From NCBI GenBank assembly GCA_044229375.1, contig JBGATE010000001.1, positions 618 through 64,617 of the forward strand: a stretch of 64,000 nt of DNA, in the 5' to 3' direction. Shown here piece by piece: positions 54,053 through 62,735 of the stretch. Numbering within the stretch: position 1 is the stretch's first letter; the number at the start of each line of letters is the position of its first letter. The position numbers were made by a program, and so were the translations under genes. The stretch comes from Chitinophagaceae bacterium (GTDB taxonomy: Bacteria; Bacteroidota; Bacteroidia; Chitinophagales; Chitinophagaceae). Below the pieces are notes generated by a model that made no database searches, was not told the DNA's origin, and saw nothing but the letters and a program-made list of their open reading frames with translations.

Positions 54053-55468
54053 ATGAAAGTTATTTTCTTTTTACTCCTCCTGTTGCCGGTCTCTTTATAC
54101 GCGCAAACCGAACCGGAAATAACCTTCCCCCGCCAGGAGGTGAAGGAGGACCTTGCCTTTTTCATAAGGACCATCGAAAATGTGCATCCCAATCCCTACC
54201 ATTCTATCAGTAAAGAAAAATTCAACTTATTTAGCGATAGTCTTGGCCGTACATTAAAAGAGAATGTTTCTTTAACAGAAGTATGGGCTTTTTTTTCCCG
54301 GCTTATTGCTGCCTTTGATGAAGGTCACAGCACTGTTGCTTACCCTTCAGTAATCCAGCAGCAAATAAAAGAAGGTAAGATCCGGATCTTCCCGGTGCTG
54401 ATCAGGGAGTTTAACCGGGAGGGCCTGCTGGTGCGCTATGATCTTTCTAACGACAGTCTGTTAAAACCCGGCGATCTTATCACCCATATCAATGGCCGGT
54501 CGGCAAAGGACCTGATGCAGTTCCTTACTTCTTTTTATGGTGGTCTGCCTTCCTGGCGAACGACACAAACATTGCGTGACTTTGGCGGGCAGTTGTTGCT
54601 GCACCAGGTACTTCCGCCATATCATATCCGCTATTCCAGCGGAGGAGAAAACAAGGAAACGTTCATCCAGGCGGTAACGCTGAGCGTGTTGCAGGCAAGA
54701 GCTGCCGAAGTTAGAAAAAGAACATCTGCCAGTACGACATCGACCGCTCCTTATAGTTTCGAACGCATGGATGGAAACATTGGTTATATCAATTTCCGTT
54801 CAATGCGTGACTTGCCGGTTTTTGAAAAATTCCTCGATTCGGTTTTTACCGAAATAAAAAACAAATCCATGGAAGGTTTGATCATTGACCTTCGGCAGAA
54901 CGGTGGAGGTAATTCGGTGCTTGGTGAACGGCTGATCAGCTATATCAGCGACAAACCTTACCGCATGGGCGGGGGCAGCCGCTGGAAAGTGAGTGATGAA
55001 TACAAAGAATTTGTCCGGGAGCAGGCAAAGACCAACCAGGTTTATGCATCCGGCTCCTTTCAGCAATACCTTAACAGGAAAACCGGGGATATCATCGGCG
55101 GAACGGCGGGAAAACCACAGCGTCCCGGTAAAAACGGGCTCCGTTTTGAAGGCCGGGTTGCCATTCTCACCGGTCCCACTACTTTTTCCAGCGCCAATAT
55201 GCTGAGTAATGCCATTAAGGACTACCAACTGGCCACCATCATCGGCGAGGCCACCGGTGAGCCCTGTAATGATTACGGAGAACTGTACTGGAACAAATTA
55301 CCCCGGACAGGACTTCTGTTTTACACCTGCAGCAAACAGTTCATTCGGGCCAATGGCGATGCCAATGACCTCAATCCCGTGTTGCCGGATATAGAGGTAA
55401 AACAGGACCCCAATAGTCTGAAGGACGATGTGCTGAACTATGCAAAAGAATGGATGAAGAAGAAATAA
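54053..55468 (+). CDS. S41 family peptidase
   Basis: HPN.Y, D.GHS, LIIDLRQNGGGNS, TFSSA, IGEATG, PVLPD; signal peptide. Confidence 0.9.
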   Translation: MKVIFFLLLLLPVSLYAQTEPEITFPRQEVKEDLAFFIRTIENVHPNPYHSISKEKFNLFSDSLGRTLKENVSLTEVWAFFSRLIAAFDEGHSTVAYPSVIQQQIKEGKIRIFPVLIREFNREGLLVRYDLSNDSLLKPGDLITHINGRSAKDLMQFLTSFYGGLPSWRTTQTLRDFGGQLLLHQVLPPYHIRYSSGGENKETFIQAVTLSVLQARAAEVRKRTSASTTSTAPYSFERMDGNIGYINFRSMRDLPVFEKFLDSVFTEIKNKSMEGLIIDLRQNGGGNSVLGERLISYISDKPYRMGGGSRWKVSDEYKEFVREQAKTNQVYASGSFQQYLNRKTGDIIGGTAGKPQRPGKNGLRFEGRVAILTGPTTFSSANMLSNAIKDYQLATIIGEATGEPCNDYGELYWNKLPRTGLLFYTCSKQFIRANGDANDLNPVLPDIEVKQDPNSLKDDVLNYAKEWMKKK

Positions 55469-56080: not shown

Positions 56081-57781
56081 ATGAAACGCTTTGCAGCAGG
56101 ACTGTTGTTGCTGGCAGTTCTCCCCGCTCTTTCCTATTCACAGCAGGAATATAAGGGAACTATATCGCTGATACCAAAAGGCCCGGATCATAACGCCGCC
56201 TATTATACCAACAAAATAAGCATGAAGGTTGAACCCGGAGGTGCGGCGGTGCTTACCGCCAATCTGAAATTTGGACCCAAAACGGAACCCGGGGATTATA
56301 TCGCCTTCACCGGCTCGATTCCGGGTACGTTCGATGGCAATGAACTCAGTCTTAACGGACCGCTGAACCAGGCCATGCAGGACGGAAAACGGTTTGAGGA
56401 AGCGGCTGTACAAACAAGGGTAAGCGGACAAAAAGAAGGAGATCTCATTACCGGCACTATTTATATGCGGTATGATGGAAGGGAAGAATCCACGATGACC
56501 TTCACCCTTCGGCCCGGTGAAATGGTGCCGGAGCTGCTTTTTCCTTTAGGCAAAAGCCCCAAAGTTTTTGATAAAGGGTGGCTGTTTGGCGCTTCATTCA
56601 AAATAACCGGTAAAGACAATGAAGAGATCGACCTTACCGAAGAAATATCCTGGAGCGGCAGCGGCAGTTTTGAGCCGGACAAAGGAGCCAGCAGCCGTCC
56701 TGTGTTTAACAGCGTGGGGGAAAATAAGATCGTACTAACGGTAGAGCATGAAGGCAAAAAATACAGTAAGGAATATACGGTGATCACCGTTAATGCCAGC
56801 CGGTATGCAAGAGTGGGAAGCCTGGCAAAATGTCCCGCAGACGCTCATGGATGCATGGCCGATCCCTTCACTGTAATGGGACCGGTTATGACCGGGAATG
56901 CCAATGTGCTGATCAACGGTTTGCCGGCTGCCTGCGAAGGCGACAGGGGAAGACATGCTGTCTGTGCCGGATCCAACACTTTTACGATAACGGGCGGCGA
57001 TGATGAAGTGCTGATCAACGGAAAAAGAGCAGCGAAGGAAGGCAGCGAAACAACCCACTGCGGAGGAATGGGCAGTATCATTAGCCTGGAAAGTAAAACA
57101 ACGGATAAGCTAATGGCTTTATCAAAAAATGTGCAATTCACCGACGGGCAGGGAAAATCTGTTTCACCGTCCGGAAAACCTGTCGCCGGGACCAAAATGG
57201 TAACAGGACCCAATGGTCTTGTAATAATGAGTCCCGACCGGAATACGGTAATGATGCTACTACCCGATTGCCAGGCGCTCATTACCGGTAATGATGAAAA
57301 TTATATGACCATAGAGCTATCAGGGGGGCAGTTATTTGTTAATGGCGAAAAGGGTGATGATCATAAAATGCTGCTGATCGAGACCTTCAACGAAAAACTG
57401 GTGAAAAAAGGAACCCGGTTTCTTTTTTCTCACAATAAAGACAGCAGCCGGCTGATCGTTTATGAAGGAGAAGTGGAGATCACCCTGAAGAAAGACAACA
57501 GCATTCTCCTTGTTCCGGCGGGCAACGTTTATTTCAATGATTTTAAGAACCCCTACAGCATTCGGGATACGTTACAGTTTCAGTCGGCTGCACAGTTAAT
57601 GTCCATTCCGAAAGACAGCGCATACTGGCAGTTACCCCAGCAAGAAGAAGCGGTAACGGAGACCACTGTAAAAAAGCCGGTTGATTTTTTGGAGATGGCA
57701 AAGAGATACTGGTATATCGCTGCCGGTGGCTTGTTGATAATTGTACTCCTGGTATTTTGGGGCAAAAGGAAGAAGAGCTGA
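56081..57781 (+). CDS. Signal-peptide, PAAR-like + FecR-like domain protein with C-terminal TM anchor
   Basis: YARVG..C..DAHGC, VLINGLPAACEGD..H..C and VLINGKRAAKEG..T.HCGG (PAAR repeats); KGTRF, IVYEGEVEI (FecR-like); YWYIAAGGLLIIVLLVFWGKRKKS. Confidence 0.8.
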   Translation: MKRFAAGLLLLAVLPALSYSQQEYKGTISLIPKGPDHNAAYYTNKISMKVEPGGAAVLTANLKFGPKTEPGDYIAFTGSIPGTFDGNELSLNGPLNQAMQDGKRFEEAAVQTRVSGQKEGDLITGTIYMRYDGREESTMTFTLRPGEMVPELLFPLGKSPKVFDKGWLFGASFKITGKDNEEIDLTEEISWSGSGSFEPDKGASSRPVFNSVGENKIVLTVEHEGKKYSKEYTVITVNASRYARVGSLAKCPADAHGCMADPFTVMGPVMTGNANVLINGLPAACEGDRGRHAVCAGSNTFTITGGDDEVLINGKRAAKEGSETTHCGGMGSIISLESKTTDKLMALSKNVQFTDGQGKSVSPSGKPVAGTKMVTGPNGLVIMSPDRNTVMMLLPDCQALITGNDENYMTIELSGGQLFVNGEKGDDHKMLLIETFNEKLVKKGTRFLFSHNKDSSRLIVYEGEVEITLKKDNSILLVPAGNVYFNDFKNPYSIRDTLQFQSAAQLMSIPKDSAYWQLPQQEEAVTETTVKKPVDFLEMAKRYWYIAAGGLLIIVLLVFWGKRKKS

Positions 57782-57933
57782 GGAAGCCCGGGAGTCTTTG
57801 GAAGTCTGCCCTCCGGCAAACAGGCATGATTAATATCATGTCGTTCTGATGCATTAAATACCCCAAAAAATCGTCTAACAGGAGCAAGGAAGTGCCGAAA
57901 ACCTTTTTACAAAGTAGGCGCAAAACTTCTGTT

Positions 57934-58542
57934 ATGAAAGCTCTTAAAAATAGGGGCCTTGCAATTGCACTCGCCCTGTCTGCCGCGGTTTTTAGCGGGT
58001 GTGATACGCCGTTATATATTACCGGTGGTATCACCTACAGTAACCCGGCCTGGGCTCCGCCTTATCATCCCGGTGCGAGGTATTATTATATGCCGGATAT
58101 TGAAACCTATTACGATATGGCCGATCACCAGTATATATACCTTCAAAACGGCCAGTGGATGTATTCCCAGGTATTACCCTCCGTTTATGCGCAATACGAT
58201 CTTTACTCCGGTTTTGTCATTACCCTGAATATTGGCGTTTACCAGCCCTGGATGCACCACCAGTATTATGTATCTCACTACCCACGTTATTATTACCAGA
58301 ATATTTACCAGGCTGATTACCGGAATATGCGGGGATACAATGAAAACGACCGGAAGCCATTTTACTGGCTGCAGGGCGACCAGGACCGGATGAGAGAACT
58401 GCGGAACAACCCGCCGCCGGCGCCGAGACCCGAAGTGAAGCTGCCCCCGCAGAACACCAATTATTATGGCCGGCCCGTAGGAGATCCTGTAAAAGTGAAA
58501 CCGCAGATGAAAAAAAAGGTGGAAAGAAAGGTCAGGAATTAA
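57934..58542 (+). CDS. Hypothetical Tyr/Pro-rich lipoprotein
   Basis: Lipobox FSGC; P.WAP, RYYY.PDIE.YYD, LP..Y..YDLY. Confidence 0.8.
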   Translation: MKALKNRGLAIALALSAAVFSGCDTPLYITGGITYSNPAWAPPYHPGARYYYMPDIETYYDMADHQYIYLQNGQWMYSQVLPSVYAQYDLYSGFVITLNIGVYQPWMHHQYYVSHYPRYYYQNIYQADYRNMRGYNENDRKPFYWLQGDQDRMRELRNNPPPAPRPEVKLPPQNTNYYGRPVGDPVKVKPQMKKKVERKVRN

Positions 58543-60752: not shown

Positions 60753-62735
60753 TTAAACAACCTCAAACCCTATTTGAGATAAATATTCAAAAGTAGGGTC
60801 ATAGAACTGAGATTTCCGAGTCCCATCCTCGGTAGATCCATAAGGTATATAAATTATCATCCCTTGCCTGGCTCTAGTTAATAAAACCCTGTATGCATTT
60901 TTTAAGTATTGTTTTCTATACTCCTTATTGATATTATTCCACTTTGTTGGCTTTTCTGATCTTACTAATAATTCAAAATATCCCCAACCCTTTGTAGAAT
61001 ATCTAAAATCTGCATCCCATGTTACACAACTCCAGTCTAATTCCAACCCCTGTACATGGAATTCTGTCGCAACATCCTCCAAATAAAATGAAGATCGTAC
61101 GTCATCCTTTCCTTCTAAAAACCAATTTACTGGATTCATTGGTGATTTTATATCGATACCATGTGGCTTTAATCGACTTGCCTTTGAAGAAACAATAAGA
61201 CCATATCGCTCGCTTCCCCGAGCTTTCAGTTTTAACCACTCTTTAGCTTTATCCAAATTTCGAGTAAGGACAATTGGATATTTCTCTTTAATGGCTTCAT
61301 AGTTTTCTTTGGCTTCGCCCATGTTTAAATCTAAAAGATTCTTTACTAATAAAGAAACGTTTTCAGCCCTAAATGATCGCATAGATACTGAAAGATGAAG
61401 ATCGTCCTTAATAAAAACATTTTTTCTTGAATTAACAAGATCAATCGCTTTCCCGGCCGCATATTCAGCATCCGTTAATTTTGAAGATAAGTAAATATGC
61501 CATTTAGGAAATGATCGATTCAACGATTCAAACCACTCACTAATACCTGCCTCTCCAGTATTTATTTCCTGCCCACCTCCAACAAGACATACAATTACCG
61601 CCCAATCAGCATGCCGGTTAAGACAAGAAATTAAAAATTCCGGTTCTGAAATATCGAAGTTATTAATCCCTCTTTTGCGCTTCATAAAATTTGCTGTTTG
61701 GGTAAGATCCCATGCCCGCTGAGCTTCATCAAAAATTGCTACGTGATCAAACGGCGCCTTCTTGTCAATAATATAATCATCCCGAAATGTATGGACATTT
61801 TGAATTATCAGTTTTACTTCGCTAAATATTTCCCCCTTTTTGACTTTATTTCCCTTTTGTTTTTCTCTTTTAACTCTATCTCTAGTTAATGCTTCTCTTA
61901 AGATTGAAACTAGTGGGCCATTGCCAGATAAATAAACACTAGTTGTTTTCTTTTCAGCATCCATATGTTTGGTTGCTACGTCCAATCCAATTAAAGTCTT
62001 GCCGGCACCCGGAACTCCTGTTACAAAACAAATAGCTTTCTCGTGAGTGTTTTTAGCACTCTTTATTACTTCTGAAATTACATTGCTCGTAACTGACAGA
62101 TTTTTTGCAGAGGCGTCACTTCTAGTAATTTCTACTACAGAATGATTATTATACAACGCCATTGCTGCTTCGATTATAGTCGGAGTAGGTGAGTATCGTC
62201 CTTGTGTCCATACTTCTGAGTCAATGATTTCTCCATCAGCAAAACCTAAAATATTCTCAATAATTCCCCGAAGAGCTTCTATGTTAGATTTTATAGGGAA
62301 AAGTAGCCTATCATTGTGCGGTGTTGTACAAATTGATGAAAAGACATTAGTTGCTTCGGTTGCTATTAGTATCGGAGCGATTAAATGCTTATGACTTGTT
62401 TCATGAAAATTTTTAAGATCAAGTGCATAATCCCAAACTTGGTCAATTGATGAAAAATTTTTTTCCCCGATCTTAAACTCCAATACAAAAATTACATTTC
62501 GAATTATAATTACAACATCTATTCTCCCTCCAACTCGCGGAATCGAGTATTCAAAAAAAATAGTCCCTTGATATCCATTCAATACTGTTTGCAATATTTT
62601 GATTTCTTGAATCCACGCTTCTTTTTGGTTTTTTGTATCATCGAATTTGCTATTTTGAGAAAGTTCCCCTAAAATTTCTTGTATAGTAGCATTACAAAAA
62701 TTTGACACTAGATCTGAGTAAAAATGCCTTTTCAT
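60753..62735 (-). CDS. DUF2075 (Schlafen group 3-like) helicase with N-terminal PD-(D/E)xK-like nuclease domain
   Basis: GRIDVV...VLEFK; Walker A GVPGAGKT; DEAQR; [10 protein letters not shown]; QGLELDW; [13 protein letters not shown]; markedly AT-rich. Confidence 0.85.

Follow-up and report, generated by a model that had tools for sequence, protein, structure and literature searches.

A single long open reading frame (ORF) at positions 56081–57781 (+) of the window, the name used here for the whole analysed stretch of 64,000 nucleotides from the Chitinophagaceae contig JBGATE010000001.1 (assembly GCA_044229375.1), encodes a 566-residue protein in which a PAAR domain is combined with a signal peptide and a C-terminal transmembrane (TM) anchor. 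The interpretation favoured here, to which a probability of about 0.6 is assigned, is that this is a repurposed PAAR protein that works in the cell envelope and not as a spike tip, namely as a periplasm-facing binding or scaffold protein tethered to the inner membrane. Within that same estimate, the module formed by the PAAR cone and the immunoglobulin (Ig)-like domain in front of it would form a widespread lineage of its own within the PAAR superfamily, acting outside the cytoplasm without VgrG, gp5 or the spike of an extracellular contractile injection system (eCIS). The domain order of the protein is signal peptide, eight-stranded β-barrel, Ig-like domain, PAAR cone, FecR-like domain, disordered linker and C-terminal TM helix, followed by the residues KRKKS.

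PAAR proteins are treated in the literature as the tips of type VI secretion system (T6SS), eCIS and phage spikes, and here the cone is found in a protein predicted to be exported and membrane-anchored, in genomes where no spike protein was detected. A 2021 survey of 3,022 PAAR genes framed all of them as parts of T6SSs or eCISs, and signal peptides and membrane anchors were never mentioned (PMC8651086). The labels given to the proteins considered here in the source databases are confined to 'PAAR domain-containing' and 'Zn-binding protein involved in type VI secretion'. A literature search on exported, twin-arginine translocation (Tat), lipoprotein or FecR-linked PAARs returned nothing relevant; its coverage was incomplete, so that this is no proof that the family is undescribed. 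If the proposed interpretation is true, the automatic annotation 'involved in type VI secretion' is wrong for such genes, PAAR-based counts of T6SS and eCIS cargo are inflated, and the PAAR fold has a second job in the cell envelope, paralleling the exported orphan Hcp proteins described below.

A full-length structure model was built with 41 homologs, and has a mean predicted local distance difference test score (pLDDT) of 76. Its layout comprises eight antiparallel strands (residues 22–145), a β domain (150–237), the PAAR domain (240–335), a further β domain (370–496), a disordered stretch (498–533) and a helix (536–565). The globular parts were compared with approximately 48,000 solved chains by VIA structural alignment, which is independent of Foldseek.

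The assignment of residues 240–338 (56798–57094, +) to the PAAR family is supported by both sequence and structural comparisons. The Pfam PAAR_motif profile matches residues 261–326 with 61.3 bits (cut-off 27) when the whole protein is scanned, and with 68 bits when the Ig+PAAR module is scanned; it also matched all 106 of the module relatives that were scanned. Sequence searches of the PDB return PAAR proteins only (eCIS SalCis10, a T6SS PAAR, c1882, VCA0105, Tre23 and Tas1). Foldseek, run with the module alone, gave nothing at E≤0.001, yet its top two hits were PAAR proteins with a probability of 1.00, and the match was settled by VIA alignment. Residues 240–338 yielded Z scores of 12.2–12.3 to c1882 (4jiw_D), with 86 residues aligned at a root-mean-square deviation (rmsd) of 2.2 Å, as well as Z scores of 11 to T4 gp5.4, 10.5 to the tip of phage P1 and 10.1 to phiKZ gp163.1. 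As judged from sequence and model, the core of the protein is a true PAAR cone and a member of the PAAR superfamily at the domain level. An earlier note on this DNA had pointed to a PAAR-like segment with the motifs YARVG, LPAACEGD and RAAKEG at 56804–57085. The motifs lie where that note placed them, and the segment, whose folding as a cone the note had made a point of concern, does so in the model.

The cone thus shares fold and family with the PAAR spike tips of known structure (c1882, 4JIW; VCA0105, 4JIV; T4 gp5.4; phiKZ gp163.1; the phage P1 tip; SalCis10, 9RCE). Between 86 and 87 of approximately 93 residues superpose on the solved tips, at rmsd values of 2.2–2.5 Å and Z scores of 10–12, and the PAAR motifs of the spike tips are kept in the exported module family. 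Unlike the spike tips, however, this protein possesses a signal peptide, a rigid preceding Ig-like domain and a C-terminal TM anchor; it carries no toxin, and its carriers have no VgrG or gp5 partner. It differs from them further in a 3-residue, His-containing insertion in its second part (GDrGvHaaC as compared with GD---CvC) and in the presence of Phe at one canonical ligand position.

The consensus of the module contains the canonical GxPAARVGD, GxPAARxGD and HCGG motifs and a Cys/His-rich stretch, and holds approximately 10 Cys/His positions in all (CPADAHGCPACPH, HAxCC, HCGG). The clade to which this protein belongs has lost several of the extra Cys/His positions; the family of 41 sequences with the same architecture retains C251, H256, C295, H326 and C327. 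The Zn site of PAAR proteins, situated near the vertex, is made up of three His and one Cys (PMC8651086). The cone of this protein is probably metal-stabilized, and a Zn-binding structural module, which had been put forward in the earlier note as an alternative, is plausible, although the Phe at one canonical ligand position leaves it in doubt.

The export and anchoring signals are conserved across the family. The predicted Sec signal peptide (residues 1–20; 56081–56140, +) has an n-region of MKR, a hydrophobic core of 14 residues and a predicted signal peptidase I site between SYS and QQ. The residue at position +1 of that site, Q21, is nearly invariant among homologs, which fits the Q-rule for signal peptidase I substrates in the Bacteroidetes (PMC5837995, PMC10653852). 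The N-terminus as a whole is that of a typical Sec signal peptide. Both membrane signals are retained in approximately 70 homologs of the same architecture, the kind of protein for which the earlier note had suggested a search. In the family of 41, an N-terminal hydrophobic core is present in 40 members and a small-x-small-Q site in 32, a C-terminal TM segment occurs in 40, and a basic cluster follows the TM segment in all 41. In the present protein the TM helix (residues ~536–561), the KRKKS tail and the stop codon occupy 57686–57781 (+); hydropathy peaks at residues 541–563, and a helix covers 536–565 in the model. The helix is preceded by a disordered juxtamembrane linker (residues 498–535; 57572–57685, +), where pLDDT is below 50 over residues 498–533. 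In variants of approximately 620 residues the TM segment is followed by a linker rich in proline and by a zinc ribbon, and the position of this ribbon indicates that the C-terminal end of the protein is cytoplasmic. The cleavable signal peptide and the C-terminal TM segment with its KRKKS tail, both proposed in the earlier note, were therefore borne out, and the reading offered there, which had been tied to their conservation in homologs, was not refuted.

Conservation extends well beyond this architecture. In BLAST comparisons with distant matches, only residues ~147–335 were common to other architectures, at approximately 50% identity; the barrel is restricted to this clade, and the conserved part is the Ig+PAAR module. 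Its first half, the Ig-like domain (residues 147–239; 56519–56797, +; motif LFPLGKSPKVFDKGWLFGA), is Ig/PKD-like and matches the Ig-like domains of LigA/LigB as well as PKD domains. When an exhaustive HMMER search was run with residues ~147–335, a total of 664 representative proteins reached E≤0.001, and the 149 among them with E≤1e–30 span the whole of this piece (approximately 150 protein clusters at 50% identity). When the module was folded with 106 relatives, a pLDDT of 97.2 and a predicted template modelling (pTM) score of 0.89 were obtained, from which it appears that the Ig-like and PAAR halves form one rigid unit.

The relatives of the module are, with few exceptions, equipped for export. 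A hydrophobic segment lies ahead of the module in 99 of 120 representatives when a strict threshold is applied, and most of the others are fragments or visibly have a leader or a Tat-like motif. A degenerate DNA pattern yielded 64 distinct module ORFs from metagenomes, of which 60 have a leader, 13 a Tat-like twin-arginine motif and 25 a lipobox; three of the four leaderless ORFs are cut by the end of the contig. The contigs concerned range from 35 to 72% in G+C content, which indicates that the module is taxonomically widespread. Every domain to which it is fused is of a cell-surface or extracytoplasmic kind (FecR, CarboxypepD_reg, SdrD_B, discoidin, SpaA, Big_1, Laminin_G_3 and TIL/EGF), and no Rhs or toxin domain occurs among the families listed for the module relatives. 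In some distant relatives several TM helices precede the module.

The genomes that carry this protein were searched for the genes of contractile injection systems. The carriers are six metagenome-assembled genomes, namely that from which the window derives (G000), G109 (90% complete) and G201–G204. The first of these is a 3.1-Mb assembly, 74% complete and labelled Chitinophagaceae in the database, which has turned up repeatedly in metagenomes from sludge and wastewater (13 studies); the protein described here is the single PAAR in it. The VgrG profile, Phage_GPD, matched in none of the six carriers. As a positive control, 18 genomes with ordinary PAAR ORFs of approximately 100 residues, drawn from a 201-genome sample of the taxonomic family, were searched in the same way; Phage_GPD was found in 15 of the 18, mostly within 1–6 kb of the PAAR gene. 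Neither Phage_base_V nor Phage_sheath_1 was matched in the 74%-complete genome of the window, and Phage_sheath_1 was likewise absent from four of the other five carriers. Profiles for the T4_gp19 tube (in five carriers, including that of the window) and for the Eag/DcrB (DUF1795) chaperone (in five carriers) gave no match. Two features that define a spike tip, assembly in the cytoplasm and a spike partner, are thus missing as far as the export signals and these searches show, and the protein is most probably not a spike tip.

One of the profiles was uninformative. VipB (TssC) had no match in the carriers, nor in five control genomes (G182, G103, G017, G046 and G044) with strong Hcp matches, so that its negative results cannot be used. 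These control genomes have strong VgrG matches as well; either they have no T6SS sheath or the search misses the type found in Bacteroidota, which is a caution for T6SS calls made by that profile search.

The protein is sparsely distributed. It was found in two of the 201 genomes of the taxonomic family and in none of 400 genomes sampled from elsewhere in the phylum, and three complete genomes from its own genus lack it. The earlier note had reported that no vgrG, hcp or sheath gene lies nearby. That statement can be extended genome-wide for VgrG, gp5-like, sheath and T4-gp19 proteins, with the completeness given above, and needs to be amended for Hcp, because a protein of this family is encoded on another contig. 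Its view of a domesticated PAAR displayed in the envelope is well supported by the conserved export signals, the cone fold and the contrast in VgrG content between carriers and control genomes.

The Hcp in question is an orphan of 180 residues with a classical signal peptide and a T6SS_HCP domain, and one such protein is encoded in each of two carriers, that of the window (87 bits) and G109 (82 bits). The genes lie at C330:4427–4969 (equivalent to L161:1429–1971, +), outside the window, and at L162:1432–1974 (+), respectively, and the surrounding ORFs have no obvious T6SS character. The two carriers are the genomes of the taxonomic family in which the full-length PAAR–FecR protein occurs. Leaders of this kind are present at six or more of the 30 Hcp loci of the taxonomic family. 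Like the exported PAAR, the exported Hcp is a building block of contractile injection systems that has a signal peptide and is situated far from T6SS genes, although it belongs to a different protein family. Exported Hcp was found in two of five carriers of the exported PAAR, as compared with 25 of 200 background genomes (12.5%), and this co-occurrence is not significant.

The FecR-like β domain occupies residues 368–497 (57182–57571, +). Of the two profile searches suggested in the earlier note, that for PAAR_motif passes its cut-off, as described above, and that for Pfam FecR yields 23.0 bits here (cut-off 24) but 34.7 and 27.1 bits in homologs. Foldseek gave a probability of 1.00 to 4m0h, 4m0n and 6ovk_R. 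By VIA alignment, residues 368–509 have Z scores of 15.6 to PupR (6ovm_R) and 15.0 to the Bacteroidota anti-sigma factor BDI_1681 (4m0h_A), with approximately 140 residues aligned. Because Pfam, NCBIfam and fold matches coincide, the homology of the domain is secure, and the FecR-like region that had been noticed earlier (GTRF...VYEGEV) is confirmed. Within it, Gly444-Thr445 (57410–57415, +) is invariant in all 41 sequences, and hhalign, in an alignment that is ungapped there, places KKGTRF on ALGTEF of Escherichia coli FecR, i.e. on Gly181-Thr182. FecR and FoxR cleave themselves at a Gly-Thr site, which in FecR is this same pair (PMC8144685). By analogy, and as the conserved motif reasonably suggests, self-cleavage probably takes place at Gly444-Thr445.

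A role as a FecR-type anti-sigma factor was considered and ruled out. Although PupR and BDI_1681 have in common with this protein a periplasmic FecR β domain and the aligned Gly-Thr, factors of that type begin with a cytoplasmic anti-sigma domain, followed by the TM segment, whereas a signal peptide and β domains come first here and the sole TM segment is C-terminal, on the opposite side of the FecR-like domain. There is no anti-sigma domain, and no sigma factor or transducer gene is apparent nearby. Furthermore, the matches to PupR and BDI_1681 end approximately 70 residues short of the C-terminus of those chains, which means that the region following the FecR domain in them has no counterpart in this protein.

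The β-rich N-terminal region of the earlier note is present, and appears in the model as an eight-stranded up-and-down barrel (residues 21–146; 56141–56518, +) with pLDDT values of approximately 80–90. The barrel fold had not been recognized in that note, nor had the fixed pairing of the cone with an Ig-like domain or the retained self-cleavage Gly-Thr of the FecR-like domain. No Pfam family was matched in this region in a Pfam scan. VIA alignment of residues 19–147 gave Z scores of 10–11 to the soluble barrels of LbpB, NHBA, HphA, HpuA and TbpB and of approximately 8–9 to avidins; a structure-atlas search with the N-terminal domain produced weak leads only, all with scores below 0.9.

Ortholog comparisons provide additional data on the constraint under which the gene evolves. 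The rate of nonsynonymous substitution (dN) for the whole gene is 0.14–0.24, with a saturated rate of synonymous substitution (dS) above 1, indicating purifying selection, which is seen in each of the domains. The Ig-like domain has the lowest dN of all domains in several of the comparisons. The highest value for any segment belongs to the variable linker between the PAAR and FecR-like domains (residues 339–367; 57095–57181, +), the columns of which are weakly conserved.

In the arrangement proposed here, the protein would be exported by the Sec route and would become a bitopic (type I) protein of the inner membrane, with an ectodomain of approximately 515 residues held by the C-terminal helix on the periplasmic side, a location that is predicted from the sequence signals. 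The Ig+PAAR module would be its core, flanked in this Chitinophagaceae clade by the FecR-like domain and by the barrel, a fold that serves elsewhere for the capture of a ligand or protein. Self-cleavage at Gly444-Thr445, as in FecR and FoxR, would leave the barrel–Ig–PAAR piece with no more than a non-covalent attachment to the membrane stub. The PAAR cone would then act as a compact, probably metal-stabilized interaction knob, and not as a membrane-piercing tip.

Several observations weigh against this arrangement. The genomes of the window and of G109 are, as stated, 74 and 90% complete, so a spike gene could have escaped assembly, and one carrier, G203, does have a match to a phage-type sheath. 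In the cone, the His of the CPH motif of the module family, which is the canonical second Zn ligand, is replaced by Phe in this protein, and the metal site may therefore differ or have been lost. The hhalign probability for the FecR alignment, which was made to a single target sequence, is low (13%), and a conserved Gly-Thr is, of course, no proof of cleavage. Finally, a cytoplasmic tail of five residues makes a signalling role hard to see.

Such a role is nevertheless the substance of what appears to be the least improbable of the alternatives, itself unlikely, which is transmembrane signalling of the FecR/RsgI type with its polarity reversed. Capture of a ligand, whether by the barrel or by the PAAR module, would free the self-cleaved ectodomain, proteases of the Prc/CtpA and site-2 types would trim the stub, and the cytoplasmic tail would be the signal, in the form of a freed zinc ribbon in those variants that have one. 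The Z scores of 15–15.6 for the FecR-like fold, the alignment of the invariant Gly-Thr with the FecR cleavage site, the ribbon behind the TM segment in the variants and an S41 peptidase gene upstream (54053–55468) are consistent with this scheme. The tail is too short for a signal, however, both here and in most homologs, the S41 gene is kept only in the closest relative, and neither an anti-sigma domain nor the part that PupR and BDI_1681 have behind their FecR domain is present. Nor does any of the ORFs in the flanking 10 kb, of which only some were scanned against Pfam, resemble an extracytoplasmic function (ECF) sigma factor or a TonB-dependent transducer. Somewhat less probable again is a role in the periplasmic handling of ligands or metals, in which a small molecule, haem or metal would be held by the barrel, with the possible participation of the Cys/His-rich cone, in the manner of the TbpB, HpuA and HphA barrels or of avidins. 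The structural matches of the barrel to these proteins, and to LbpB and NHBA, accord with that idea, as do the Cys/His positions of the module consensus and the Tat leaders of some relatives, the Tat route being one often taken by proteins that fold before export. Eight-stranded barrels are common, however, and are no indication of function; this one occurs only in a clade from which several of the extra Cys/His positions have been lost, and no transporter or metal-regulated gene is a conserved neighbour.

The remaining alternatives concern the relationship of the cone to contractile systems. As a decoy or sensor for incoming spikes, a possibility raised in the earlier note, a periplasmic cone would bind the blunt end of the VgrG/gp5-type β-helices of attackers or phages, and thereby block or report them. 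The completeness of the cone and its closeness to solved spike-capping PAARs, the retention of canonical PAAR motifs in the module family and the patchy, accessory-like distribution described above are consistent with such a device. T6SS and T4 spikes, however, enter the target cell with their own tip in place, and would thus arrive already capped. Added to this, the gene has no defence island, immunity-like context or conserved neighbours, many relatives are fused to surface domains of the adhesin type, unlike a periplasmic trap, and the Ig-like, barrel and FecR-like domains would be left unexplained; this explanation is speculative and is regarded as very unlikely. Slightly lower still is the likelihood that the exported PAAR and the exported Hcp of two carriers together form an unrecognized envelope or extracellular assembly of domesticated contractile-injection parts that operates without sheath or VgrG. 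Least likely of all is the possibility that a contractile system escaped detection and that the protein is its ordinary cytoplasmic spike tip or effector, with an N-terminal stretch that is a TM helix of the kind present in prePAAR effectors. In favour of this, there is no doubt about the PAAR homology, the genome is incomplete, one carrier has a sheath match, and several TM helices lie ahead of the module in some distant relatives; prePAAR effectors with N-terminal TM domains (eLife 2020, PMC7773334) likewise have a PAAR in a protein with hydrophobic helices. In contrast to those effectors, the N-terminus of this protein resembles a cleavable signal peptide in its features, including the conserved Q-rule site, and lacks a motif of the AARxxDxxxH type, which is reportedly the prePAAR motif. 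No Eag (DUF1795/DcrB) gene was found in five carriers, there is no C-terminal toxin domain, and VgrG is missing from all carriers but present in most control genomes. Approximately 220 residues of β domains separate the leader from the cone, relatives have Tat and lipoprotein leaders, and a second, C-terminal TM segment with a basic tail is a misfit for a protein loaded on a spike. The envelope protein proposed here is thus preferred to each of these alternatives.

The gene stands alone. Among 24 orthologous loci no neighbour is conserved beyond the synteny of close clades, the top two clusters being antisense ORFs within the gene itself. In the window it is accompanied by a small ORF and by genes for an S41 peptidase, a lipoprotein, an ABC transporter and a DUF2075-like protein, none of which is kept across the orthologous loci. 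The S41 (Prc/CtpA-family) peptidase, which has a signal peptide and is encoded two genes upstream (54053–55468, +), is shared with the closest relative, L020, alone. Proteases of the Prc/CtpA type are described as modulators of cell-surface signalling (PMC10392083); given the restricted conservation of this gene, its link to the FecR-like protein is probably accidental. Directly downstream, at 57892–58542 (+; likely start 57934), lies a gene for a Tyr-rich lipoprotein of approximately 200 residues with the lipobox VFSGC, which belongs to no Pfam or NCBIfam family and is likewise conserved only in L020. The DUF2075-like ATPase gene (60753–62735, −; 660 residues) is situated in a stretch of 36–39% G+C, as compared with approximately 49% around it, which suggests that it is a recent acquisition.

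Other forms of the module were observed in the course of the searches. One protein of 5,583 residues (P0230) contains 21 distinct stretches that match the Ig-like half of the module. In two others (P0075 and P0074) the module is combined with eukaryote-like TIL domains, and P0075 also has EGF and TSP1 domains. Minimal lipoproteins of approximately 245 residues with the Ig+PAAR module were found at 18 loci together with a companion ORF of approximately 240 residues, which has an N-terminal TM anchor and the motif AGYFLGNVP...LGTNK and matches no Pfam family; these loci include L060, L061, L072, L075, L083, L090, L095, L097, L105, L107, L113, L123 and L127. Where neither gene is truncated, the companion lies upstream of the module gene on the same strand, at a distance of 7–16 bp, as exemplified by the pair at L057 (957–1682, −, and 216–941, −). 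By BLAST and hhalign the companion has no similarity to any domain of the protein described here. Four of the two-gene loci encode, close to the module gene, a methyltransferase with a fused Trm112-like zinc finger, and the versions of the companion in L075 and L095 have an N-terminal zinc ribbon. The two-gene unit thereby echoes the fused design of the present protein and its variants, with a membrane anchor, an optional cytoplasmic zinc ribbon and the Ig+PAAR module.

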